Assembly: GCA_035711625.1 (NCBI GenBank)
Contig: DASTCA010000022.1
Coordinates: forward strand, 21,039-85,038
DNA: 64,000 bases
Reading direction: 5' to 3'
Origin: Gemmatimonadota bacterium
GTDB lineage: Bacteria; Gemmatimonadota; Gemmatimonadetes; JACCXV01; JAHWKZ01
The notes beneath the pieces were generated by a model. It was not told where the DNA came from and made no database searches. It saw only the letters and a program-made list of their open reading frames with translations. Shown here in pieces: positions 5,750-18,793 of the stretch. Within the stretch, counting starts at the first letter, position 1; each line of letters opens with the position of its first letter. The position numbers and the translations under genes are program-made.

Positions 5750-5953
5750 GGAAACGGGATGTACCCTTCCGATGTGCGCCGGATCCTCCGGCCACGCTAG
5801 GTTGTTCTCCATGAACCGGCGCTGCGCGGCGTACTACCTCGGCGACCTCGGTGCGGACGGACCCTCTCCCGAGGAGATCGTGGCGCGGTTCGCTGTGGCT
5901 GGAAGCGGCGAGTGGCCGACGGCCACCGGCGCAAGAGCCAGGGAGACACGGCC

Positions 5954-8900
5954 ATGACGATCGCCAAGCGCCTGATCCTCTTGCTCGGCGTGCCTCTCGT
6001 AGTGCTCATCGGGTTGGGCATCTACACGCACCGGCAGCTCGATCGGATCGAGGAGCGAAGCCGCTTCGTCGCGGAGTCGCGCATCGATGCACTCGCCACG
6101 ATCGCGAACCTTTCCCGACAGTTCGAAGAGCTTCGCGTGGAAGCGCGAGAGTACCTCCTCTCCGACGACGAGGAACGCGCGCAGATCCGCGCGCGGTTCG
6201 ACGAGGGGGAGCGTGAGTTGTCTGCTCTCCTGCGGTTGTATGCAGACAGCCTGGTCGTGAGTGATCAGGGGCGACGCCTTCTGGGGGAGTTCCAGACCCA
6301 GAGCGCGGAGTGGCTGATCGACGCGAAGCGGGTGATGAGCCTCGTCGACGAAGGCCGGGGCGAGGAAGCGCTCGCGCTCGCGGGGGGCCAGATGGAGCTC
6401 GGCATGCGGCTCAGCGCAGCCTCGGGCGAGTGGATCCTCAACAACGAGGAGTTGGCGGAGCGGGCGGGGCAGGACGTGACGCGAGCCATCGAGACTTTCA
6501 GGACGCGAATGATGCTCGTCACCGCAGCGGCGGTCCTGCTGGCCGGTATCCTGGGCTACTTGACGGTCCGCCGGATCGTCGTGCCGATCCGCGGCCTCCG
6601 GTCCTCGGTGGAGACGATCGCGTCGGGCGACTACCGGACCGAGGTCCCGTTCATGCACGCCACAGATGAGGCGGGCGCTCTGGCGCGATCCATCGACGTG
6701 TTGAAGCGCGGCGCGGAGGAAATGGACGACCAACGCTGGGTAAAGTCTCAGGTGTCCGCCATCACCGGGGACTTGCAGGGGGCGACCTCCTTCGCGGACT
6801 TCGGCGAGCGCTTGTTGTCCGGTCTCGTGCCTCTGATCGGCGGGGGGGTGGCGAGCTTCTACGTGTTCGACGAGTCGACTCACCGTCTCCGGAAGAGCGC
6901 GACGTACGGACTGCCCGCCGATGCCGCGGCCGATGAAGTCGGACTCGGCGAAGGGCTGATCGGCCAATGTGCGCGGGATCGCCGCCCGGTCACCCTGTCG
7001 GGACTGCCGCCGGATTACTTGCTGATCGGATCGAGCGTCGGGACGGCGACTCCCACTTTCGCGAAAGCGTGGCCTGTCCTGCTCCAGGACTCGCTCCTCG
7101 GAGTATGCGAGCTCGCATCCTTCCAGGCGTTCGGTTCGCGGAGCGAGGCGTTGCTCGAGCAGCTCCTGCCGGTCACGGCGATGAGCCTGGAGGTCTTGCA
7201 GCGCAACCTGCGACTCGAAGATACCGAACGATTCTTCCGCAGCGTGCTCGAGCTCGCTCCCGACGGCCTCATGGTGGTCGACGAGCAGGGCGTTATCCAG
7301 GTGGCGAACGTGCAGTGCGAGGCGCTCTTCGGCTATACCCAGGCGGAGCTCATCGGCCGTTCTGTCGAGACGCTCGTGCCGGAGGACGTGCGAGCGGGGC
7401 ATGCGGCGCTACGCGAGGCGTTCAATCGGAACCCGTCCACACGCTCGATGGGAGCGGGTCGGGAGCTCCAGGGCCAGCGCAAGGACGGCACTCTGTTCGC
7501 CATCGAGATCGGGCTGAGCCCGTTGCCGGGGCGGAACGGGAGCCGCGCCCAGACCGCGGTCTCCATTCGGGACATCACCGAGCGCAAGCAGGCCGAGGCC
7601 GAGCTCAAGCGCACGAACTTCCTGGCCGACAGCGCGCTGGATCTCACGAAGTCGGGATACTGGCACGTGCCGCTCGACGGGTCGGGCTGGTACAACTCGT
7701 CCGCTCGCAGCATCGCCATCTTCGGGGACGAGCCGAACCCCGAGATGCGATACACCCTGGACCACTGGTCCGCTCACGTGTTTGCGGGCGACGAGGCGGC
7801 GGCGAAGACGACGATGGAGAACTTCGCCGCGGCGGTGGCAGGGACGATTCCGCGGTACGACTCGACGTACGCCTACAAACGCCCCGTCGACGGCGAGGTC
7901 GTCTGGCTCCACGCGTTGGGCCACGTGATCAAGGACGAGGATGGGACGCCGACGGACATGTACGGGGTCGTCCAGGACGTCACAGATTTCAAGGAGCTGG
8001 AACGGGAGCTCCTAGGGGCGCGCGACACGGCGGAAGCCGCCACTCAAATGAAGTCGATGTTCCTCGCGAACATGAGCCACGAGATCCGCACGCCGATGAA
8101 CGCCGTCATCGGCCTCTCGCACCTGGCTCTCAAGACCCAGCTGAGCCACAAGCAGCGCGACTACGTGACCAAGATCCACAGCGCCGGTACGTCACTGCTT
8201 GCGATCATCAACGACATCCTCGACTACTCGAAGATCGAGGCGGGCAAGCTCGAGATCGAGGCGACGACTTTCCGGCTCGACGACGTCATCGCGTCGGTCA
8301 CCACGCTCACAGGTCAGAAGGCGAACGAGCGTGGGCTCGAGTTCCTCGCGCGCGTCTCGCCCGGCATACCGCAAGTGCTCATCGGGGACCCGATCCGACT
8401 CGGACAGATTCTTACCAACCTGGTGAACAACGCGATCAAGTTCACCGAGCGAGGCGAAGTTCACGTCACCGCCGAGGTCCTGGAGAAGACCGACCAGAAG
8501 TGCAAGCTGAGGTTCTCGGTCCGCGACACCGGCGTAGGCATGACGCGCGAGCAGGCCGATCGGCTGTTCCAGCCGTTCATGCAGGCCGACATGTCGACCA
8601 CGCGCCGCTACGGCGGAACCGGCCTGGGTCTCAGCATCAGCCGGCGGCTGGTCGAACTGATGGAGGGCGAGATCTGGCTTGAAAGCGAGCTCGGCGCGGG
8701 GAGCACCTTCACGTTCACCGTCTGGCTGGGAGTCGCTGAGGATAAGGCGTCCCGCAAGGTGGTCCCCGAGAAGCTGGCGAGCCTGCGCGCTCTCATCGTG
8801 GACGACAACGCCGCCGCCCGGGAGATCCTCGAAGACATGCTCGAAGGGGTTGTGAAACAGGCGGACGTCGTGGCCTCGGGTGCCGAGGCGATCGCCGCGC

Positions 8901-10246
8901 TCCGAGACAACGCCGCGGACGACCCCTATGACGTCGTGTTCATGGATTGGCGCATGCCCGGGATGGATGGGCTGGAGGCAGTCCGCATCATCAAGCAGGA
9001 GCCGAGGATCGAGCCCAAGCCGGCGATCGTCATGGTCACGGCGTTCGGACGGGAGGACGTGCGCGAGGAGGCGGAACGCCTGGAGCTCGATGGATTCCTG
9101 CTCAAGCCGCTTACGAAGTCGATGATCGTGGATGCGCTGGTCAGCGTGTTCGCCGATTCGGCCGAACAGGCAGCCGCGGTCGACATGGCGAACGAGCAAG
9201 GAATCGACCTGTCTGGTATGCGCGTGCTCGTGGTCGAGGATAACGAGATCAATCAGCAGATCGCGGTGGAGCTCATCGAGGGCGTAGGCGCGTCGGTGAC
9301 CGTAGCGGACAACGGAAAGCTGGCCCTCGACATCCTGATGGAAGGCCCGACCCCGACCCCGTTCGAGGCCGTGCTCATGGACCTGCAGATGCCCGTGATG
9401 GACGGTTTCCAGGCGACGGAGGCGATCCGGGCCGACCCGCGGTTCGCCTCTCTCCCCATCGTGGCCCTGACTGCGCACGCGACAATGGAAGAGAGGCAGC
9501 GGTGCATCGCCGCGGGCATGAACGATCACGTGGCGAAACCGATCGACCCCGGCTTGCTCTACGAGACGCTCGGCCGTTTCCACCACGGGACGACGCCCGT
9601 CGCGCGTCCCGAGGTGAGCGCGCGCGCACACGACGGAGTCCCGAACGTCGAGGGGCTCGACACCGCGGCCGGCCTCAGCCGGGTCGCGGGCAACGAGCGG
9701 CTCTATCTGAAGCTCCTCCGCCAGTTCGTGGACCAGCAAGCCGAAGCGGTGACGGAGATTCGCGCGCTTCTCCAGGAGCGTCGCACGGAGGACGCGGAGC
9801 GGCTCGCGCACACGTTAAAGGGGGTTTCCGCGACCCTGGGCGTGAAGGACGTTCCTGAAGTGGCCGAGACGGCCGAGCGAGCGATCAAGGATCGCGCTCC
9901 GAGCGGGGAGATCGATGTCGCGCTGGAGAAGGTCGAAGCCGCCCTAGGCCTCGCGGTGACACGGCTGCGGGACGCCCTCGCCGTGTTCGCACCTGACGCC
10001 GTGACGACGAGCGCGGCGGTAGATCCCGCACAGACGCGCGCGGCCGTGGCCGAATTGACGAGCCTGCTGGCGGACTTCGACGCGGGCGCCATCGAGTTCG
10101 TCGAGGGTCACGCCGCCGTCTTGCGGCCGCTTTTCGCGGCCGACGCCTGGAGTCAATTCCTCAAGCAGGTCCAGGCGTTCGCCTTCCCGGACGCGTTGGC
10201 GATGCTCGAGGCCACCGATCGCGGCCAGGGATCGACGAAAGCCTGA
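5954..10246 (+). CDS. unorthodox hybrid sensor histidine kinase (4HB sensor, HAMP, GAF, PAS, PAS, HisKA, HATPase, REC, REC, Hpt)
   Basis: ATG at 5954 (MTIAKR); an alternative start lies at 5912. Two TM helices flank a roughly 150-aa helical periplasmic region. H-box MSHEIRTPMN. G-boxes DTGVGM and GGTGLGL. Two receiver domains (LIVDDN...MDWRMPGMDG and VLVVEDN...MDLQMPVMDG). C-terminal Hpt (HTLKGVSATLGV). Confidence 0.9.
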   Translation: MTIAKRLILLLGVPLVVLIGLGIYTHRQLDRIEERSRFVAESRIDALATIANLSRQFEELRVEAREYLLSDDEERAQIRARFDEGERELSALLRLYADSLVVSDQGRRLLGEFQTQSAEWLIDAKRVMSLVDEGRGEEALALAGGQMELGMRLSAASGEWILNNEELAERAGQDVTRAIETFRTRMMLVTAAAVLLAGILGYLTVRRIVVPIRGLRSSVETIASGDYRTEVPFMHATDEAGALARSIDVLKRGAEEMDDQRWVKSQVSAITGDLQGATSFADFGERLLSGLVPLIGGGVASFYVFDESTHRLRKSATYGLPADAAADEVGLGEGLIGQCARDRRPVTLSGLPPDYLLIGSSVGTATPTFAKAWPVLLQDSLLGVCELASFQAFGSRSEALLEQLLPVTAMSLEVLQRNLRLEDTERFFRSVLELAPDGLMVVDEQGVIQVANVQCEALFGYTQAELIGRSVETLVPEDVRAGHAALREAFNRNPSTRSMGAGRELQGQRKDGTLFAIEIGLSPLPGRNGSRAQTAVSIRDITERKQAEAELKRTNFLADSALDLTKSGYWHVPLDGSGWYNSSARSIAIFGDEPNPEMRYTLDHWSAHVFAGDEAAAKTTMENFAAAVAGTIPRYDSTYAYKRPVDGEVVWLHALGHVIKDEDGTPTDMYGVVQDVTDFKELERELLGARDTAEAATQMKSMFLANMSHEIRTPMNAVIGLSHLALKTQLSHKQRDYVTKIHSAGTSLLAIINDILDYSKIEAGKLEIEATTFRLDDVIASVTTLTGQKANERGLEFLARVSPGIPQVLIGDPIRLGQILTNLVNNAIKFTERGEVHVTAEVLEKTDQKCKLRFSVRDTGVGMTREQADRLFQPFMQADMSTTRRYGGTGLGLSISRRLVELMEGEIWLESELGAGSTFTFTVWLGVAEDKASRKVVPEKLASLRALIVDDNAAAREILEDMLEGVVKQADVVASGAEAIAALRDNAADDPYDVVFMDWRMPGMDGLEAVRIIKQEPRIEPKPAIVMVTAFGREDVREEAERLELDGFLLKPLTKSMIVDALVSVFADSAEQAAAVDMANEQGIDLSGMRVLVVEDNEINQQIAVELIEGVGASVTVADNGKLALDILMEGPTPTPFEAVLMDLQMPVMDGFQATEAIRADPRFASLPIVALTAHATMEERQRCIAAGMNDHVAKPIDPGLLYETLGRFHHGTTPVARPEVSARAHDGVPNVEGLDTAAGLSRVAGNERLYLKLLRQFVDQQAEAVTEIRALLQERRTEDAERLAHTLKGVSATLGVKDVPEVAETAERAIKDRAPSGEIDVALEKVEAALGLAVTRLRDALAVFAPDAVTTSAAVDPAQTRAAVAELTSLLADFDAGAIEFVEGHAAVLRPLFAADAWSQFLKQVQAFAFPDALAMLEATDRGQGSTKA

Positions 10247-10249
10247 GCG

Positions 10250-11254
10250 ATGACGTCGCGAATCCTGCTCATCGACGACACCCCGGCCACCATCGAAGCG
10301 ATCGCCGCCACCTTGCGGCAGGAGGGCTATAAGGTCAGCGTCGCGACCAGCGGTGAGCAGGGGCTGGACGTTCTCGAGCGCTTTCGCCCGGACCTGATCC
10401 TCCTCGACGTGATGATGCCCGGGATGGACGGTTTCGAAACCTGCGCCCGGATCAAGGCGGCCCCCGAGTGGGCAGAGATCCCGGTGGTCTTCCTCACGGC
10501 CAGGGGCGATCCGGACGACATCGTCCATGGCTTCGAGGCGGGCGCGGTGGATTACGTGTCGAAGCCTTTCAATGCGCACGAGTTGCTCGCGCGTGTGAGA
10601 ACCCATCTGACGCTCGACCAGCTCTATCGCGAGAATCAACGTCTCCTGCTCAACGTGCTGCCCGCGCCGATCGCCGAGAAGCTGAAGAAACAGACCGGTA
10701 TCATCGCCGACCGATACGATGACGTATCGGTTCTCTTCGGGGACCTCGTGGGGTTCACACCGCTCTCGGCGACGTTATCCCCGACCGACCTGCTGGAGCT
10801 CCTGAACCGTGTGTTCTCCGGATTCGACCTGCTGGCCAGCCAACGGGGTCTCGAGAAGATCAAGACCATCGGAGACGCCTACATGGTCGCGGGCGGCCTT
10901 CCCGAGCCACGGCCCGGTCACCTCGCGCTGATGGCCGAGCTCGCCCTGGACATGCAGGCCAGCATGGCACCGTTCAAGGCGAAGTACGACGGTCTCAGCC
11001 TGCGCATCGGGCTCCACGTCGGCAGCGCCATCGCCGGGGTCATCGGGATACGCAAGTTCATCTACGACGTCTGGGGCGATACCGTGAACACGGCCAGCCG
11101 ATTGGAGTCCCACGGCATCCCGGGCCGCGTCCAGGTCAGCGACACGGTGTACGAGCGGCTCCGGACTCGCTTCGATTTCGAGCCGCGCGGGGTCGTGGAT
11201 CTGAAGGGGAAGGGCCCGATGATGACCTACCTGCTAATCGGAGCGCGGGGTTAG
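10250..11254 (+). CDS. response regulator with class III adenylate cyclase output (REC–CHD)
   Basis: ATG 4 nt after the HK stop. REC (LLIDDTP...LLDVMMPGMDGFE...K). CHD with intact catalytic set: FGDLVGFT (metal Asp), KTIGDAYMV (adenine-specifying Lys and second Asp), GDTVNTASRLES (transition-state Asn and Arg). Confidence 0.85.
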   Translation: MTSRILLIDDTPATIEAIAATLRQEGYKVSVATSGEQGLDVLERFRPDLILLDVMMPGMDGFETCARIKAAPEWAEIPVVFLTARGDPDDIVHGFEAGAVDYVSKPFNAHELLARVRTHLTLDQLYRENQRLLLNVLPAPIAEKLKKQTGIIADRYDDVSVLFGDLVGFTPLSATLSPTDLLELLNRVFSGFDLLASQRGLEKIKTIGDAYMVAGGLPEPRPGHLALMAELALDMQASMAPFKAKYDGLSLRIGLHVGSAIAGVIGIRKFIYDVWGDTVNTASRLESHGIPGRVQVSDTVYERLRTRFDFEPRGVVDLKGKGPMMTYLLIGARG

Positions 11255-11257
11255 TGT

Positions 11258-12520
11258 TCATGGAGACTCCCAGTTCAGCGCCGCCTCCTCGATCGCGTCG
11301 CACGCCGCCCCGACGCCGTCCTCAGCGCGCACCGTCTCGCCGATGCGTGCGGCCCGGGCCAGCAAGGCGGGGTCGTCGAGGAGCGCTCTGAGCTCGGCGG
11401 CGACCCGGTCGGCCTGATAGCGCTTCGGGGGCAAGGTCTTCGCCACCCCGATCCGCGTCGCCCGGCGCGCGTTGTCGGGCTGGTCGCCGGCCCACGGGAC
11501 CGCCAGCATCGGACGTCCCGAGCGCAGCGCCTGGGCCAACGTGCCCATTCCGGCGTGATGGACGATCGCCGTGGCACGGGGAAACAGCGCACCGTATGGC
11601 GCGCGCTCGATTACGATCGCGTCGTCCCCGAGAGGCGCTTCCGGTCGGTTCGAGGGATCGTCGCCGACCAGGAGGACTGCGCGCTTCCCCAGCATTCGCG
11701 CCGCGGCGAGGCTCTCCTCGTAGAACGATCCCGCGACCGCCACCGCCGAGGTCCCGAGCGTGAACACGATCGGCGCCGGCCCGGCGTCGAGAAACGCCTC
11801 GAGCGGCGCGGTGCCGGGATCCGCGGCCAGCGGGGGATCTCGGAACAGGAAGCCGGTCAGCTTGGCGCTCGCCGGCCAGTCGCGCTGGGGCTCGGCGATG
11901 ACGCGCGAGAAGAGCCCCAGCGTCAGCAACGGGGAGTGCTGACCCTCGTAGAGGGGGTGACCACCCGGCGGCAGCCCGTGCTCCTCGCGAAGCTCGCGAA
12001 CCGGCTCGATCCAGGACCTCGTGATCTCTCGAGCCAGCCGGATCAGGAGGTCCGGAACCCCCGGCATCCCATGCACGCGCCACGCCCGCGGAGGCGGCGG
12101 GGCGACCGGCAGGTCGTATCGTGAGAAGAAGGGGAATGGCGAGAGAACAGTCGAGGCCCACGCCATTTCCCGCTCTTCGGCGACGATCGGTCCCGCGAAC
12201 GTCAGCGGGTGGGTGACGATCATGTCGGCGTCACGCGCGGCGTCGGCCGTATCGAGGTACGAGTCGCGGAGGTGCGGAAGCACGACGTTCCGGATCACGA
12301 ATTCAGCCCCGAGGCGCGGGTCCATCGCGATCTTTCGGTCGTTCGGATCCGCGTCCGGGCGGACCGGCCGGAACCCGATCCCCTCGGCCTCGACAGCTGC
12401 GCGGTAGAAATCGTGGGTCCCGATCATCGGTTCGTGGCCGCGCGCGGCGAGCCCGCGGCCCAGCGCGAGGTACGGGTCGAGGTCTCCCAGCGTGCCGAAG
12501 GTCGTGATCAGGACGCGCAT
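11258..12520 (-). CDS. GT1-family glycosyltransferase, paralog B
   Basis: ATG at 12520 (MRVLITTFGTLGDLDPY). Collinear with the 4490..5749 protein, with many identical blocks (AARGHEP, GFRPVRPDA, REEHGLPPGG, AVLLVGD, AIVHHxGxGTL, DQPDNARRA). Stop lies 3 nt from the cyclase gene stop (convergent). Confidence 0.75.
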   Translation of the reverse strand: MRVLITTFGTLGDLDPYLALGRGLAARGHEPMIGTHDFYRAAVEAEGIGFRPVRPDADPNDRKIAMDPRLGAEFVIRNVVLPHLRDSYLDTADAARDADMIVTHPLTFAGPIVAEEREMAWASTVLSPFPFFSRYDLPVAPPPPRAWRVHGMPGVPDLLIRLAREITRSWIEPVRELREEHGLPPGGHPLYEGQHSPLLTLGLFSRVIAEPQRDWPASAKLTGFLFRDPPLAADPGTAPLEAFLDAGPAPIVFTLGTSAVAVAGSFYEESLAAARMLGKRAVLLVGDDPSNRPEAPLGDDAIVIERAPYGALFPRATAIVHHAGMGTLAQALRSGRPMLAVPWAGDQPDNARRATRIGVAKTLPPKRYQADRVAAELRALLDDPALLARAARIGETVRAEDGVGAACDAIEEAALNWESP

Positions 12521-12584
12521 CGGAACAGTGTAGGCCGTCGCGGGAGCCGGGAGCTACCGGTCCGGATGCTCGTCCCGCTTTCGT

Positions 12585-12600
12585 ATCAAGATTCGTTGAT
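12585..12600 (+). promoter_or_regulatory. candidate ArsR operator / promoter region
   Basis: Imperfect palindrome ATCAAgattcgTTGAT inside a locally AT-rich stretch (tttcgtatcaagattcgttgatgtaagttgg), 14-29 nt upstream of the arsR ATG. TGTAAGT could serve as a -10. Confidence 0.3.
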
Positions 12601-12613
12601 GTAAGTTGGTTCC

Positions 12614-12934
12614 ATGGTCCTCGCTCCTTCGATTCCGGTGGCCCGGGCAGCGGCGGTCTTTCAGGCCCTTTCCGACGAGAAGCGGCTTCGCATCCTCGGG
12701 CTCCTGGTTGGCGGCGAGCAGTGCGTCTGCGAGCTGACCGAGGCGCTCGACCTCCCCCAGTCCCTGCTCTCGTTCCACCTCAAGGCGCTCAAGGCGGCCG
12801 GCCTGGTCGCCGACCGACGTGACGGGCGGTGGGTCCATTACTCGCTGAGGCCGTCGGGCCTGGAAGAGGCGAAGGACGCGCTCGATGCGCTGGTCGTCGA
12901 GCCGATACCGCGTGCGAAGGCAGCCCGATGCTGA
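12614..12934 (+). CDS. arsR: ArsR/SmtB-family metalloregulator
   Basis: Winged-helix protein with the As(III)-binding CVC motif (GGEQCVCELTEAL) and the conserved LLSFHLKALKAAGLV recognition helix. Confidence 0.8.
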   Translation: MVLAPSIPVARAAAVFQALSDEKRLRILGLLVGGEQCVCELTEALDLPQSLLSFHLKALKAAGLVADRRDGRWVHYSLRPSGLEEAKDALDALVVEPIPRAKAARC

Positions 12935-13701
12935 GCTCCTGGCACTGCGCGCTGATCGCCGATGTCCACGGCAACCTGCCCGCGCTCGAGGCTGTCCTCG
13001 AAGACATCCAGCGACGCGGCGTGGACGCGGCCTACCACCTGGGAGACCTGGTGGGATATGCGCCGTGGCCGGACGAGGTGGTGGCGCGGCTCGCCGAGGC
13101 GGGTATCGCAGGTGTCGCCGGGAACTACGACTCCACCGTGGCCACCGGCGCCGACCACTGCGGCTGCCGAGCTGAGAGTCCCGAGCAGGAGGCGCTCGCC
13201 CACGAGAGCTATGCCTGGACGCTGGCGCGGGTGACGCTCGAGACGAAAGCCCGGCTCCGAGCGCTTCCGTTCCGCATCGACCTCCGGCCGGGCGGGGGTC
13301 ACCATTCCGGGCCGACGCTCCATCTCTTCCACGGCGCGCCTACCCTAAATACGCTCTACTGGGACGAGAGCCGCCCGGACGACTTCGCTCGCAAGATGGC
13401 GGCGAAGCTGGGCGCGATCGAGGGCGACGCCATGGTCTTCGGTCACACGCACGTTCCGTGGCAACGCGAAGTCGACGGAATGCTGTTCGCGAACGCGGGG
13501 TCGGTCGGGCGACCCAAGGACGGTGATCCGCGCGCCTCTTGGGCGATCGCATCCTGGGACGGTTCGGCGATCCAGATCGAGCCCGTGAGGACCGACTACG
13601 ACGTCGAGCGCGCAGCCAGGGCGATCCTCGTGAGCGAGCTTCCCGACACGTTCGCCGACGACCTGAAGCATGGCGGGACGAAACGGGTCGGAGCCGCATG
13701 A
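12928..13701 (+). CDS. calcineurin-like metallophosphoesterase (MPP superfamily)
   Basis: ATG overlaps the arsR stop (ATGCTGA). MPP motifs present: DVHGN, GDLVGY, GNYD (a variant of GNH[DE]), FGHTHVP. An unusual HCGC cysteine cluster. Sits between arsR and acr3. Confidence 0.7.
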
Positions 13702-14801
13702 CGGGTCGACTGGCCTTCCTCGATCGATACCTGACGCTGTGGATCTTCCTGGCGATGGCGGGCGGTGTGGCGCTGGGCCGGTTGGTCCCGGTCATCCCCA
13801 CGGCCCTCGACGCGATCGCGATCGGGACCACGTCGATTCCGATCGCCGCCGGCCTCATCCTGATGATGTATCCGCCGCTCGCCAAGGTGCGGTACGAGCA
13901 GCTGCCGAGGGTCTTCCGTGACATCAAGGTGCTGGGGCTCTCCCTCGCTTTGAACTGGGTCGTGGGTCCGGCGCTCATGTTCCTCCTCGCGATCGCGTTC
14001 CTCGCGGATCGGCCCGAGTACATGATCGGGATCATCCTGATCGGGCTGGCGCGCTGCATCGCCATGGTGATCGTGTGGAACGACCTGGCGGCAGGAGACG
14101 CGGAGTACGCCGCGGGGCTGGTGGCGTTCAACTCCGTCTTCCAGGTGGTGTTCTTCGCGGCGTACGCGTGGCTGTTCATCGGCGTGCTGCCCGGCGTGCT
14201 GGGACTGGAAGGCGCGCGGGTCGACGTCACGACGCGTGAGATCGCGACCTCGGTGTTCGTCTACCTGGGCATCCCGTTCCTGGCCGGAATGGCGACGCGA
14301 TGGATCGGGCTGAGGACCAAGGGTCGTGCGTGGTACGAGTCGGAGTTCGTCCCGCGAATCTCGCCGCTCACCTTGATCGCGCTCCTGTTCACGATCGTCG
14401 TCATGTTCTCCTTTCAGGGGGACGCGATCCTGGAGCGTCCGTTCGACGCGGTGCGGATCGCGGCGCCATTGCTCGTCTATTTCGTCATCATGTTCTTCAC
14501 GGCGTTCTGGCTGTCGTGGAAGGCCGGAGCCGACTATCCGAAGGCGACCACCCTCTCGTTCACGGCGGCGTCGAACAACTTCGAGCTGGCGATCGCGGTT
14601 GCGGTGGCCACGTTCGGGATCGGGCACGGTGCGGCGTTCGCCGCCGTGATCGGACCGCTCGTGGAGGTGCCGGTCCTGATCTCCCTGGTCGCGGTGGCGC
14701 TTCGCATCCGCAGCCGCTGGTTCCCCGACGACCCGGCCGAGCTGGCGCGGGTCCGGACCTGTGCGATCGATGTCGAGACCTCGCCCGCAGTCCAGAGGTA
14801 G
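13698..14801 (+). CDS. acr3: arsenite efflux transporter, ACR3 family
   Basis: ATG overlaps the upstream stop (ATGA). About 10 TM helices. ACR3/ArsB(Acr3)-type sequence ([42 protein letters not shown]). Confidence 0.8.
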
Positions 14802-14814
14802 GATCTCGTCCCCG

Positions 14815-15384
14815 TTGCCTGTCTACGCGCTGCTCCTGGTCTGGGGCGCGCTAGCGGTCGCCGCGGGGGCCGCGGGGTGGGTGGCGGACTCGCCGGTTCC
14901 ACCGCCTGCCATCGCGGCGGGTCTGATCGCCGCCTGGCTCGTCGCATACCGAGTCTCGGAACGCATGAAGGGTTGGGTCCGCGCCGTGCCCCTCAGTGCT
15001 CTGATTGCGATCCACCTCGTGCGCTTCGTCGGGGCCTGGTTCATCGCGCTCTACCGCCGTGGGGAGCTGCCGTTCGAGTTTGCCGTTCCCGGTGGGTGGG
15101 GGGACATCCTGGCCGCCGCGGGCGCGGGCGCGCTCCTCGTAGGGGCGATTCCGGCGCGGACACGGGGGCGCCGAGGGGCCGTCCTGGCGTGGAACGTGCT
15201 CGGTGTGCTCGACATCCTGTACGTCCTGGTCACCGCGGCGCGGCTCTTTGTCGCCGACCCGACGCAGCTGACGCCCCTGACGCGACTGCCTCTCTCTCTG
15301 CTGCCGACCTACTTCGTGCCGCTGGTCGTCCTCTCCCACCTGCGGATCTTCGGTTGGTTGCGCGAGACGCGCTCTCGCCCCTGA
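14815..15384 (+). CDS. hypothetical polytopic membrane protein
   Basis: Candidate TTG start at 14815, 11 nt after AGGTAGGA and 14 nt after the acr3 stop. The track ORF begins at 14761 inside acr3. About 5 predicted TM helices. No recognised domain. Confidence 0.45.
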   Translation: MPVYALLLVWGALAVAAGAAGWVADSPVPPPAIAAGLIAAWLVAYRVSERMKGWVRAVPLSALIAIHLVRFVGAWFIALYRRGELPFEFAVPGGWGDILAAAGAGALLVGAIPARTRGRRGAVLAWNVLGVLDILYVLVTAARLFVADPTQLTPLTRLPLSLLPTYFVPLVVLSHLRIFGWLRETRSRP

Positions 15385-15388
15385 ACGA

Positions 15389-16369
15389 TCAGCCCTGGCC
15401 CCGAGTCCGCAGCGCCCGAGCGGTTTCGCCCACTCGGAGCGACGCGTCGAAGATGCGCCCCACGCGGATCCCGCCCGGAAGGCGATGGCGGCCGAGAGCG
15501 TGGAGGCCGATTGACGCAACGCAGCCGCAGTTGGCGCAGTCCGGCTTCCCGCCGAACTGACACGGCGTCACGCGGGTCTCGAGGTCCGCGGAGAGGCACC
15601 GGGTCACGCGCGCGAAGACGCACTCGCTCGGGTCGCGGGGAGGCTCCAGATAGGCATCCAGCATCCCGCGGTTGGCGAGCAGTTTCGGAAACCGCCGTCG
15701 GATGGCGTCCAGCTCCGCGACCGCCTTGCGTCGCATGGCCGGCGACAGGATCTCCTCGCACGACTCCCCCACCTGAGGAGTGAAGAAGCTGATCCGAATC
15801 GACTTCACCTCCGGGCGCTCGCTCCATGTCCGCACGAACTCCGTGAGGTAGCCGTCGCGACGGGTCATCTGGCTCGTAACCGTGCAATGGACGATGATCC
15901 GGTGACCCTCGATGTTGGCGAGGATTCGCTCGTAGGTGGCGGGTTTCCGGCGAACGTCGTGCTCGGGCTGGAGCCCGTCGATGGAGACCACGACCGTGAG
16001 ATCCTCGATGTGGGCCCAGGCGGGCGGGATGCGACGGACCGCGCTCGTCACGACCTCGACACGGACTCCGCGGTCCGCCAGCTGCGGAAGCAGCACGTCC
16101 AGTTCCCGAAAGCGAACCAGGGGCTCGCCGCCCACGATGTGGACGATCAATGGACGCTGGCGGTCGACCAGCTCGAGGATCCCTTCGACGAGGGCAGGGC
16201 CTGTTCGATCCGCCAGCGATGTGAGGGGGACACCGTCCAGGTGCTCGGGCTGGTAGGCGTAGCAGCCCGGACAGGAGAGGGGGCAGCGGGTCGTGATCTC
16301 GATGGAGAGGGACGGAGCGTATCCGCGGAGGATCCGCGTCCAAGCCCGTACGACGTGAATACGATGCAC
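15389..16369 (-). CDS. radical SAM protein, HpnH-like (C-terminal Cys cluster)
   Basis: CxxxCxxC (TTRCPLSCPGCY). GGEPL glycine-rich SAM motif. VSIDG. C-terminal CQFGGKPDCANCGC cluster resembling the CANC-containing tail of HpnH-type enzymes rather than a canonical SPASM CX2CX5CX3C. Confidence 0.75.
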   Translation of the reverse strand: MHRIHVVRAWTRILRGYAPSLSIEITTRCPLSCPGCYAYQPEHLDGVPLTSLADRTGPALVEGILELVDRQRPLIVHIVGGEPLVRFRELDVLLPQLADRGVRVEVVTSAVRRIPPAWAHIEDLTVVVSIDGLQPEHDVRRKPATYERILANIEGHRIIVHCTVTSQMTRRDGYLTEFVRTWSERPEVKSIRISFFTPQVGESCEEILSPAMRRKAVAELDAIRRRFPKLLANRGMLDAYLEPPRDPSECVFARVTRCLSADLETRVTPCQFGGKPDCANCGCVASIGLHALGRHRLPGGIRVGRIFDASLRVGETARALRTRGQG

Positions 16370-16531: not shown

Positions 16532-16957
16532 GTGAGGAAGATCCTGCGCGCGGCGATCGGAACGGTATTGTTCCTGGAGGGGCTGGCGTTCTTCGGGGGA
16601 GTCGCGCTCCACCTGGGAATTCCCATCCCTTCGCCCTACGTCGAGAAACTCTCCTACAGCTCTGCGCTTGCGGAGATCATCAGCGGTGTCGTGCTCCTGG
16701 TGGCGGCCGTCGCGACCGCGGTTCAACCGCGGTTCGCGTGGAAGCTGGCGGTGGTGGGTCACGTCCTGGGCGTGGCCAGCATCGCGTGGGGAATCGCGAA
16801 CCGAGGATCCGCAGTGGGCGAGACCAGCCACCATCCGGCGATGCTCCTGATGCTCATCGTCGTCGTGATCGGGCTCTCGATGCCGTTCTGCCGGCAGGCG
16901 CTCGAAAACGGTCGGCACCGATCGAAGCGCCGGAGACGCTACATGCAGGCGATCTAG
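16532..16957 (+). CDS. small hypothetical membrane protein (4 TM)
   Basis: GTG at 16532 preceded by AAGGAAGGA. Four hydrophobic segments. Basic C-terminus (RHRSKRRRRY). Confidence 0.5.
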   Translation: MRKILRAAIGTVLFLEGLAFFGGVALHLGIPIPSPYVEKLSYSSALAEIISGVVLLVAAVATAVQPRFAWKLAVVGHVLGVASIAWGIANRGSAVGETSHHPAMLLMLIVVVIGLSMPFCRQALENGRHRSKRRRRYMQAI

Positions 16958-17436
16958 CTACGATCCGCCCCGCCGGACCCGAGGACGTTCCCGCCATCCG
17001 GGCCATCTACGCGCCCCTGGTCACCGGATCCCACGTTTCGTTCGAGATCGTCCCGCCCTCGATCGAGGAGATGCGGGAGCGGATGGAGACGGCCCCGGTA
17101 CCGTGGCTCGTCGCCGACGAGGGCAGAGTCGTCGGCTTCGCGAGCGCGGGGCCCTTCCGCTCGCGCCCGGCGTACGGCCGGACGGCCGAGGCGTCGATCT
17201 ACGTGGCGGAGGAGGCTCGCCGGAAAGGCGTGGGTCGGGCCTTGGGGGAAGCCATCCTCGAAGAGCTCCGGAACGCCGGTTACCACAGCGCGATCGGGGT
17301 CGTCGCGCTCCCGAATCCGGACAGCGAGCGCCTGCTCGGGAAGCTCGGCTTCCGCTCCGTGGGAACGATCCGGGAGGCGGGGTTCAAGCTCGGTCGCTGG
17401 TGGGACGTCCAGCTCTGGCAACGCGTCCTGGAGTGA
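16954..17436 (+). CDS. GNAT acetyltransferase, phosphinothricin-acetyltransferase-like; start codon unresolved
   Basis: Clear PAT-like GNAT (LATIRPAGPEDVPAIRAIY ... RRKGVGRALGEAILEEL). No ATG, GTG or TTG in frame between 16870 and 17058. Coordinates start at the first conserved residue overlapping the upstream stop, so the true start is uncertain. Confidence 0.5.
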   Translation, partial: LATIRPAGPEDVPAIRAIYAPLVTGSHVSFEIVPPSIEEMRERMETAPVPWLVADEGRVVGFASAGPFRSRPAYGRTAEASIYVAEEARRKGVGRALGEAILEELRNAGYHSAIGVVALPNPDSERLLGKLGFRSVGTIREAGFKLGRWWDVQLWQRVLE

Positions 17437-17446
17437 CGCGAGAGGC

Positions 17447-18793
17447 TCAGGCCATTGCGAGCCGGAGTGCGAGCCCGCAGAGGGCTGCCACGGCCACGGT
17501 GGCGAGGATCCCCCATCGCCGGCGGAACAGGAGAAACGCCGCTCCGGCGGCGATCGCGACCGCGTAGGGATCCATCGTGGACCAGACCGGAACCTCGAGG
17601 TGGAGGCTCCAGCGGGACACCCATTCCGTGGCGCCGAAGAGGGTCCGGAGCGCGAACCAGACCGCGAGGTTCAGAATCACGCCCACGACTGCAGCGGTGA
17701 TTCCGGAGAGTGCCGCGGTGAGCCCCTTCCGGCCGCGCAAATGCTCGATGTACGGCGCGCCGACGAAGATCCACAGGAAGCACGGCGCGAACGTCACCCA
17801 CGTCGTCACGACGGACCCAACCACGCCCGCAACGATCGGATCCAGGGCGCCGGGACTCCGGTAGGCCCCCAGGAACCCGACGAACTGGACGACCATGATC
17901 AGGGGGCCGGGCGTCGTCTCGGCCAGCCCCAGGCCATCCAGCATCTCTCCCGGGGAGAGCCAGCCGAAGTCCTCGACCGCGCGCTGGGCGATGTAGGCGA
18001 GGACCGCATAGGCGCCGCCGAAGGTCAGAACGGCCGCCTTCGAGAAGAACAGCGCCTCTGAGACGAAGACGCTCCCCCCTCCAGCGACCAGCGCGAGCAG
18101 TCCCACCGGAGCCCACCAGATACCGAGCCAGAGGAGCGCGGTCGCGATCGTGCGGGAGGCCGGCGGAGGCGGGACCGCTTCCCGCTGTGGAGGATCTCCC
18201 GCGCCCGGCAGGGAGCGCGAGATCAGAGACTCGACCCCGGCCCGTGCTCCGAGCCATCCGACGAGCGCAGCGGCTCCGACGATCGCCGGGAATGGGACGT
18301 CGAAGGCGAACATCGCGAGGAATGCGAGGGCGGCGACAGCCACGAGGAGGGTCGAATCGAGAGCGCGGCGGCCAATCCGGACCAGCGCGTGAACGACGAT
18401 CGCCAGGACGGCGGGCTTGATTCCGTAGAAGATCGCGTCCACGACCGGAACGTCCCCCCACGCGACGTAGAGGATCGAGAGAGCCAGGATCGAAAGGAAC
18501 CCGGGCAGGATGAACAGCCCTCCCGCCACCAGGCCGCCGCGCCAGCGGTGCATGAGCCAGCCGACGTACGTCGCGAGCTGCTGCGCCTCGGGCCCGGGAA
18601 GGAGCATGCAGTAGTTCAGCGCGTGAAGGAAGTGGCGCTCCGAGATCCAGCGCCGCTCGTCGACGAGCAGCCGCTGCATGACCGCGATCTGTCCCGCGGG
18701 CCCGCCGAAAGAGAGCGCCGCGACCCGTAGCCAGACCGGGATCGCCTCCCGCAGGGAGGTCGCCTGACGCACGCGCTCCGGGGAGTCGGTCAT
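17447..18793 (-). CDS. chrA: chromate transporter ChrA (full-length, duplicated CHR domains)
   Basis: Bipartite CHR family signature (SFGGPAGQIAVMQ in the N-half, LTFGGAYAVLAY in the C-half). About 12 TM helices. Confidence 0.85.
   Translation of the reverse strand: MTDSPERVRQATSLREAIPVWLRVAALSFGGPAGQIAVMQRLLVDERRWISERHFLHALNYCMLLPGPEAQQLATYVGWLMHRWRGGLVAGGLFILPGFLSILALSILYVAWGDVPVVDAIFYGIKPAVLAIVVHALVRIGRRALDSTLLVAVAALAFLAMFAFDVPFPAIVGAAALVGWLGARAGVESLISRSLPGAGDPPQREAVPPPPASRTIATALLWLGIWWAPVGLLALVAGGGSVFVSEALFFSKAAVLTFGGAYAVLAYIAQRAVEDFGWLSPGEMLDGLGLAETTPGPLIMVVQFVGFLGAYRSPGALDPIVAGVVGSVVTTWVTFAPCFLWIFVGAPYIEHLRGRKGLTAALSGITAAVVGVILNLAVWFALRTLFGATEWVSRWSLHLEVPVWSTMDPYAVAIAAGAAFLLFRRRWGILATVAVAALCGLALRLAMA

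Follow-up and report, generated by a model that had tools for sequence, protein, structure and literature searches.

An arsR-metallophosphoesterase-acr3 operon

Within a 64,000-nucleotide stretch of a Gemmatimonadota genome (assembly GCA_035711625.1, contig DASTCA010000022.1, positions 21,039 to 85,038; hereafter the window), four co-directional genes on the plus strand, recognised from the open reading frame (ORF) listing and by direct reading, encode in order an ArsR-type regulator, a metallophosphoesterase (MPP), an ACR3 efflux protein and a small helical membrane protein. The MPP gene, here termed car1-like, lies in the position of an arsenate reductase gene. Judged from its sequence, the locus is probably an ArsR-controlled arsenic detoxification operon in which arsenate would be reduced by a Car1-type enzyme instead of by ArsC.

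The arsR gene (12614-12934, plus strand) specifies a 106-residue metalloregulator of the ArsR/SmtB family (Pfam HTH_5, E = 1.4e-16; NF033788, 98 bits against a cutoff of 55). It is followed on the same strand by the car1-like gene, which runs from an ATG at 12928 to 13701 and encodes 257 residues with a Pfam Metallophos_2 domain (E = 1e-19; 71.4 bits against a cutoff of 27), and by acr3, from an ATG at 13698 to 14801, whose 367-residue product matches TIGR00832 (E = 1e-134; 449 bits against a cutoff of 282.8) and Pfam SBF (E = 8e-60). The last gene of the operon, at 14770-15384 on the plus strand, encodes the membrane protein of about 204 residues, for which profile searches returned no Pfam domain or other family match. 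The stop codon of arsR and the start codon of the MPP gene share the sequence ATGCTGA (12928-12934), the MPP stop codon and the acr3 start codon share ATGA (13698-13701), and the three genes are translationally coupled. Both overlaps, like the four-gene operon itself, had been proposed in an initial annotation of this DNA; the overlaps can be read directly in the sequence, and all four ORFs lie where they were placed, with identities assigned by profile searches. The 14-bp gap described ahead of the membrane protein gene did not stand, as a start at TTG 14815 leaves 13 nucleotides and a start at ATG 14770, which fits the homologues better, overlaps acr3 by 32 nucleotides. The latter start is preferred because the N-terminal sequence MSRPRPQ... 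is retained among homologues; the corresponding junction of the syntenic locus L091 is a 4-nucleotide overlap. On its upstream side the operon adjoins a divergent glycosyltransferase gene (11258-12520, minus strand), and on its downstream side a convergent radical S-adenosylmethionine (SAM) gene (15389-16369, minus strand). The order arsR-MPP-acr3-membrane protein was found again in loci L091 and L093, with overlapping codons at the readable junctions, and because order and overlaps both recur the arrangement is not a product of chance.

The regulator carries Cys37-Val-Cys39 within the sequence QCVCEL, in the region of the DNA-binding helix, so that the CVC motif reported earlier is confirmed by direct reading. 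Membership of the winged-helix family (NF033788) and the alpha-3 location of this CxC pair, a candidate As(III) site, point to an ArsR/SmtB protein of the R773 type. We take Cys37 and Cys39 to correspond to the As(III)-binding Cys32 and Cys34 of R773 ArsR, the third cysteine of which (Cys37 of R773) is replaced by Thr in the window protein. At 12585-12600, 13 nucleotides upstream of the arsR start codon, direct reading locates an imperfect palindrome, ATCAAGATTCGTTGAT, which is identical in L093 and is represented at the same place in the alignment by a perfect version, TCAAGAATTCTTGA, in L091. This putative element is likely to be the ArsR operator, and the start coordinate of 12585 in the initial annotation is accounted for by the palindrome, which begins there. 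Its arms, of 5 nucleotides, were found by eye and backed by alignment, a generic inverted-repeat finder having missed them. Scans of 12400-15600 returned no sigma-70 consensus promoter and only two terminator-like matches, both inside genes and at chance level. As for the efflux protein, which scores above the TIGR00832 equivalog cutoff, direct reading shows the conserved RCIAM cysteine and PLVEVP glutamate to be kept; the conserved Cys and Glu matter in Acr3 proteins.

None of the four genes is homologous to ArsC, Acr2 or ArsH according to the profile searches, in agreement with what was first noted, although for ArsH the search was confined to these four genes. For ArsC and ArsM the whole window was covered by tblastn with four ArsC queries (two of them taken from loci L058 and L012) and one ArsM query, and neither was detected (best E = 0.09); the ArsC queries by themselves gave nothing better than E = 0.3.

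Relationship of the metallophosphoesterase to Car1

The evidence that carries the proposed function is homology to a characterised enzyme. In BLASTP the window MPP aligns over residues 8-247, with 40% identity and 56% positives (E = 1e-60), to P0142, a protein named by NCBI ‘arsenate reductase Car1 [Rufibacter tibetensis]’. This protein was reached by a search with the MPP of Rufibacter sediminis (locus L058), which had itself come from a genome scan with the alignment of window homologues; the R. sediminis orthologue is 86% identical to Car1, has the same length and carries its cysteines at residues 74 and 76. As(V) reductase activity has been ascribed to Car1 of R. tibetensis (Shen et al. 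2024, Mol Microbiol 122:201, cited in PMC12124457), and PMC12124457 reports that Cys74 and Cys76 are essential for this activity. In the alignment of the window protein with Car1, GNYD pairs with GNYD and HCGC, which includes Cys78 and Cys80, pairs with NCGC; since alignment and 74/76 numbering agree, the HCGC cluster is the counterpart of the catalytic CxC pair of Car1. The GNYD variant and the HCGC cluster to which the initial annotation drew attention are thus both present, unchanged in 14 close relatives, and the alignment of the HCGC region that it called for places the essential cysteines of Car1 at the equivalent position. Its conjecture that an MPP-fold enzyme acts as arsenate reductase in the ArsC position gains support from the full-length homology to Car1 and the shared cysteine pair.

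The MPP fold itself is predicted with high confidence. The AlphaFold2 model has a predicted local distance difference test (pLDDT) score of 94.3 and a predicted template modelling (pTM) score of 0.92, and the metal ligands are D12, H14, D40, N66, H135, H173 and H175, GNYD being residues 65-68 and HCGC residues 77-80. Motif III has Tyr where GNH[DE] has its catalytic general-acid His. The loop that separates helices 66-73 and 85-101 holds the CGC pair, some 11 residues past the metal ligand N66. A genome scan that yielded 83 aligned homologues found the seven metal ligands without substitution, with GNYD in 81 and CGC in 81; of the two that depart from this pattern, one is a copy with a frameshift and the other a paralogue picked by mistake.

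The family is large. One search for homologues of the MPP matched at least 8,000 proteins, and in an exhaustive profile search 1,279 clusters at 50% identity reached E = 1e-30 or better. Among the 150 best cluster representatives, 61 have GNYD with CGC 6-14 residues further on, and the top ranks are dominated by this group; in 29, many of which are long proteins of several domains, GNYD occurs but CGC does not, and 31, from sister clades, have the canonical GNHD without CGC. Because other representatives have GNYD or GNHD without CGC, it is the combination of GNYD with CGC that marks a discrete subfamily. GNYD as a marker of the reductase subfamily by itself was considered and rejected on account of those same 29 representatives. 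Many high-scoring relatives are multidomain proteins of 440-800 residues whose MPP domain has GNYD or GNFD and lacks CGC (P0435, P0440, P0446, P0459, P0469, P0477, P0479, P0490 and others). Profile searches of the window proteins against Pfam and NCBIfam release 20 turned up no specific Car1 family model, and the database labels of Car1-type proteins are ‘metallophosphoesterase’ or ‘predicted phosphodiesterase’.

One alternative is that the window protein is an ordinary YfcE- or SapH-like phosphodiesterase or phosphatase which performs no redox chemistry (it might, for example, clear arsenate-ester or nucleotide by-products) and is merely co-located with ars genes. All MPP metal ligands are intact, as such an enzyme would have them, and the solved structures nearest to the model (3rqz, SapH 3qfm/3qfn, 1nnw, 2gju and YfcE 1su1) are MPP phosphodiesterases, with 3rqz, 3qfm and 1su1 described as phosphodiesterases or Ap4A hydrolases. 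The YfcE/MJ0936/SapH phosphodiesterases (PDB 1su1, 3qfm and 3rqz) share with the window protein both the Pfam Metallophos_2 domain and the fold, with a Foldseek E of 2e-19 to 3rqz and template modelling scores of about 0.7-0.8. Car1, too, reportedly keeps weak phosphatase activity. We nevertheless regard this alternative as highly improbable. Tyr occupies the place of the general-acid His in GNH[DE]; the near-invariant CGC pair is absent from 3rqz, SapH and YfcE, as the structure-search alignments indicate for 3rqz and 3qfm; the protein falls short of the cutoffs of YfcE-family models (TIGR00040, 47.2 against 56.25 bits; NF006988, 53.5 against 117 bits), the broad Metallophos_2 model being the one MPP model whose cutoff it exceeds; and genes of this kind sit in an ars context in a large majority of the loci considered next.

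Genomic context of Car1-type genes

Whether MPP genes recur in ars contexts in other genomes, the neighbourhood test proposed with the initial annotation, was assessed in 80 homologous loci from species-representative genomes of at least eight named lineages. The lineages sampled were Gemmatimonadota, genera and orders of Bacteroidota, Solirubrobacterales and Conexibacter, Chlorobiota, Armatimonadetes, a Kuenenia metagenome-assembled genome, Myxococcales, Rhodanobacter and Limnohabitans. In 67 of the 80 loci the MPP gene has one or more recognisable ars genes no further than 3 kb away, an undercount because several loci are truncated contigs, and the test thus came out positive. Within the same distance arsR was found in 49 loci, arsM in 35, acr3 in 30, an aquaglyceroporin gene in 17, thioredoxin-type arsC in 16 and an ArsN1-like gene in 6; ACR3, aquaglyceroporin, ArsM or ArsC is encoded near the MPP in 59. 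The metagenomic contigs L001-L004 have the order arsR-arsM-MPP-acr3, and L005 has arsR-arsM-GNAT-MPP-aquaglyceroporin. The distribution of thioredoxin-type ArsC is uneven, as it is encoded nearby in just 2 of the 42 Gemmatimonadota-type loci against 14 of the 38 others, and its rarity in the former fits the view that the MPP is the resident reductase of the phylum.

The company of arsM also bears on substrate. The MPP might mainly or additionally reduce or process another pentavalent metalloid, such as methylarsenate or antimonate, rather than inorganic arsenate. In favour of this are the 35 loci with arsM within 3 kb, the MPP gene often standing immediately downstream of arsM, and the recurrence near the MPP of ArsN1-like acetyltransferases, which act on organoarsenicals, with one in the window at 16960-17436. 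Proximity to arsM would, however, be equally expected if ArsM received its As(III) from the MPP, the case made in PMC12124457; the tblastn search found no arsM in the window operon; and the characterised homologue Car1 is reported as an As(V) reductase. Another preferred substrate is accordingly regarded as unlikely, and inorganic arsenate is favoured.

Among close relatives, the content of the slot that follows the glycosyltransferase gene is variable. It holds arsR-MPP-acr3-membrane protein in the window, L091 and L093, MPP-membrane protein only in L086, L087 and L092, and MPP-amidohydrolase in L090, and because of this variation a recent gain or loss of arsR and acr3 has taken place around a car1-like gene that stayed in position. 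The MPP-membrane pairs, in which the membrane gene directly follows the car1-like gene with a 4-nucleotide overlap and without arsR or acr3, raise a further alternative, namely that the two genes form a unit whose primary function in this Gemmatimonadota lineage is not concerned with arsenic, arsR and acr3 having been recruited secondarily. This would seem exceedingly improbable. The MPPs of the loci that lack arsR and acr3 keep GNYD and HCGC, ars genes accompany the wider MPP family in the great majority of cases, the membrane protein's remoter homologues do not stand beside MPPs, and ArsN1-like and ChrA genes flank the slot in all of its versions, which points to a metal(loid)-resistance neighbourhood. 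Even when the three alternatives are added together, they are given a minor share of the probability.

Several points do weigh against arsenate reduction by a Car1-type enzyme in this operon. The reductase activity of the window protein, as of Gemmatimonadota members generally, is a prediction, and identity to Car1 is just 40%. The search for ArsC covered the 64-kb window, and the gene may be present elsewhere in the genome. The loci L086, L087 and L092, with an MPP-membrane pair and no adjoining arsR or acr3 (the MPP being 77% identical to that of the window in L086 and L087), show that the Car1-like enzyme is not strictly tied to an arsenic operon. Finally, the mechanistic steps proposed below draw on PMC12124457, which cites the Car1 work, and on standard ars biology.

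A lineage-specific membrane protein

The product of the fourth gene belongs to a small family of about 305 proteins, the named members of which are all from Gemmatimonadota. It has no cysteines, and the invariant polar residues within its helices include H67, R70, G94-W-G-D97, W126-N127, R143, P164-T165 and S174-H175. In fold comparison, generic helix bundles were the only matches. A general linkage of this protein to ars genes was ruled out, since homologues at 47-50% identity occur in unrelated contexts; the membrane gene is genuinely linked to the car1-like gene, though within a single lineage only.

The earlier suggestion that this protein is an accessory permease is a guess. It has also been considered that the protein is a dedicated partner of the Car1-type reductase, either a new small channel or exporter for arsenicals or oxyanions, or a docking site at the membrane through which reduction and efflux are coupled. 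Such a partnership would account for the retention of the membrane gene in translational coupling with the car1-like gene where arsR and acr3 are absent, but it is put forward tentatively and as rather doubtful. The same low expectation attaches to a second, broader reading, in which Car1-type enzymes would have taken over from ArsC as the principal arsenate reductase in Gemmatimonadota.

Comparison with known systems and a possible mechanism

The enzyme class to which the window protein is assigned is already described, in the form of Car1 (2024), the Orf1 operons (2025) and earlier unexplained ‘MPase’ and ‘MrMe’ genes. Car1 of R. tibetensis and the window MPP have in common the MPP fold, the metal ligands, GNYD and a Cys-Gly-Cys pair (78/80 in the window, 74/76 in Car1), as well as similar length (257 residues in the window, 259 in Car1) and the proximity of acr3 in an ArsR-regulated cluster. 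They differ in provenance, Bacteroidota as opposed to Gemmatimonadota, and in the residue that precedes the pair, which is Asn in Car1 and His in the window. In gene content, the window operon shows the order arsR-car1-acr3 with overlapping codons and has the additional lineage-specific membrane gene, and whereas in R. sediminis (L058) an arsC of the low-molecular-weight protein tyrosine phosphatase (LMW-PTP) type lies immediately upstream of the car1 orthologue, the window and 40 of the 42 Gemmatimonadota-type loci have no ArsC nearby.

A second set of relatives comes from anaerobic soil isolates, whose ars operons encode an MPP (Orf1) that is about 40% identical to Car1 and keeps Cys74 and Cys76 (PMC12124457). 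An arsR-orf1-acr3-arsM operon is present in Paraclostridium dentum IIB4 and in Tepidibacter and T. petrolearius strains, and in P. dentum it goes together with As(V) methylation by the strain (PMC12124457). The order arsR-MPP-acr3 and the cysteine pair are the same as in the window, but these Firmicutes operons also contain arsM, arsP, arsD and arsA, none of which is present in the window operon. Uncharacterised MPP genes had also been noted inside the ars operons of Mucilaginibacter gossypii P3 (MrMe1/MrMe2) and Deinococcus indicus DR1 (‘MPase’), and for the latter the authors guessed at an ATPase role (PMC10652896, PMC9807832); these operons, unlike that of the window, also hold ArsC. In loci of Sphingobacteriaceae and other Bacteroidota (L069, L071, L072 and L076, at about 6001-7500), acr3 is followed by a tandem pair of MPP genes. 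One, the nearer to acr3, is of the Car1 type with GNYD and CGC, and the other is a paralogue with the canonical GNHD, with GHSH and without a CxC motif; this gene pair corresponds to the uncharacterised mrme1 and mrme2 of M. gossypii P3.

The proposed recruitment follows the same logic as that of the thioredoxin-coupled LMW-PTP-type ArsC of pI258 and of the Cdc25-type Acr2, where arsenate, as a mimic of phosphate, binds to the scaffold of a phosphatase and a relay of cysteines finishes with a disulfide that a thiol system reduces, and the window MPP is predicted to share their operon position and role. The scaffolds themselves are unrelated: ArsC and Acr2 have a P-loop CX5R and no metal centre, whereas the window MPP is a binuclear-metal beta-sandwich, and no sequence similarity was detected between them.

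On this model arsenate, a mimic of phosphate, would enter the cell and bind at the former phosphoesterase site, where Cys78 would attack it to form a thiol-arsenate adduct. Resolution of the adduct by Cys80 would release As(III) and leave a Cys78-Cys80 disulfide, to be reduced again by thioredoxin. The As(III) produced would be exported by ACR3, and binding of As(III) to Cys37 and Cys39 of ArsR would release the regulator from the palindrome at 12585-12600 and induce the operon, with which the fourth gene, that of the membrane protein, would be co-transcribed.

Genes surrounding the operon

Downstream of the operon, the radical-SAM gene at 15389-16369 (minus strand) encodes 326 residues, and its stop codon lies 4 nucleotides from that of the membrane gene. 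L092 also has this gene, but L086 and L087 lack it in the corresponding slot. The possibility that its product is an ArsL-like arsinothricin enzyme was examined and found no support, as it gave weak generic radical-SAM/SPASM matches only. Beyond it, a 141-residue membrane ORF (16532-16957, plus strand) abuts a gene for a GNAT acetyltransferase (16960-17436, plus strand), 1.6 kb downstream of the operon, whose best match is the arsinothricin-resistance acetyltransferase ArsN1 family B (NF040504, 161 bits, under the cutoff of 210); a convergent gene for the chromate transporter ChrA (17447-18793, minus strand) follows. This trio is syntenic in L086, L087 and L090, and for that reason the operon can be placed in a small metal(loid)-resistance neighbourhood.

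On the upstream side, beyond the glycosyltransferase gene, a hybrid sensor histidine kinase of 1444 residues is encoded at 5912-10246 (plus strand), with HAMP, GAF, PAS, HisKA, receiver and Hpt-like regions as judged by eye. It is followed at 10250-11254 (plus strand) by a response regulator that is fused, according to a reading of the translation, to an adenylate/guanylate cyclase-like domain. Together with the histidine kinase gene, this gene lies upstream of that for the glycosyltransferase.

Implications for arsenic cycling

As Car1-type enzymes have been described before, the value of the present locus lies in annotation and ecology. The literature search found no characterised Gemmatimonadota member of the Car1 family, and reading of the sequence alone recovered here a real functional recruitment. 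In Gemmatimonadota, Car1-type genes appear to stand in for ArsC, and since the ars clusters of these bacteria are usually without ArsC, surveys that gauge arsenate-reducing potential by counting arsC probably miss these organisms. If ArsC has indeed been replaced in Gemmatimonadota, ArsC-based metagenomic surveys of arsenic cycling in soils would undercount an abundant phylum.

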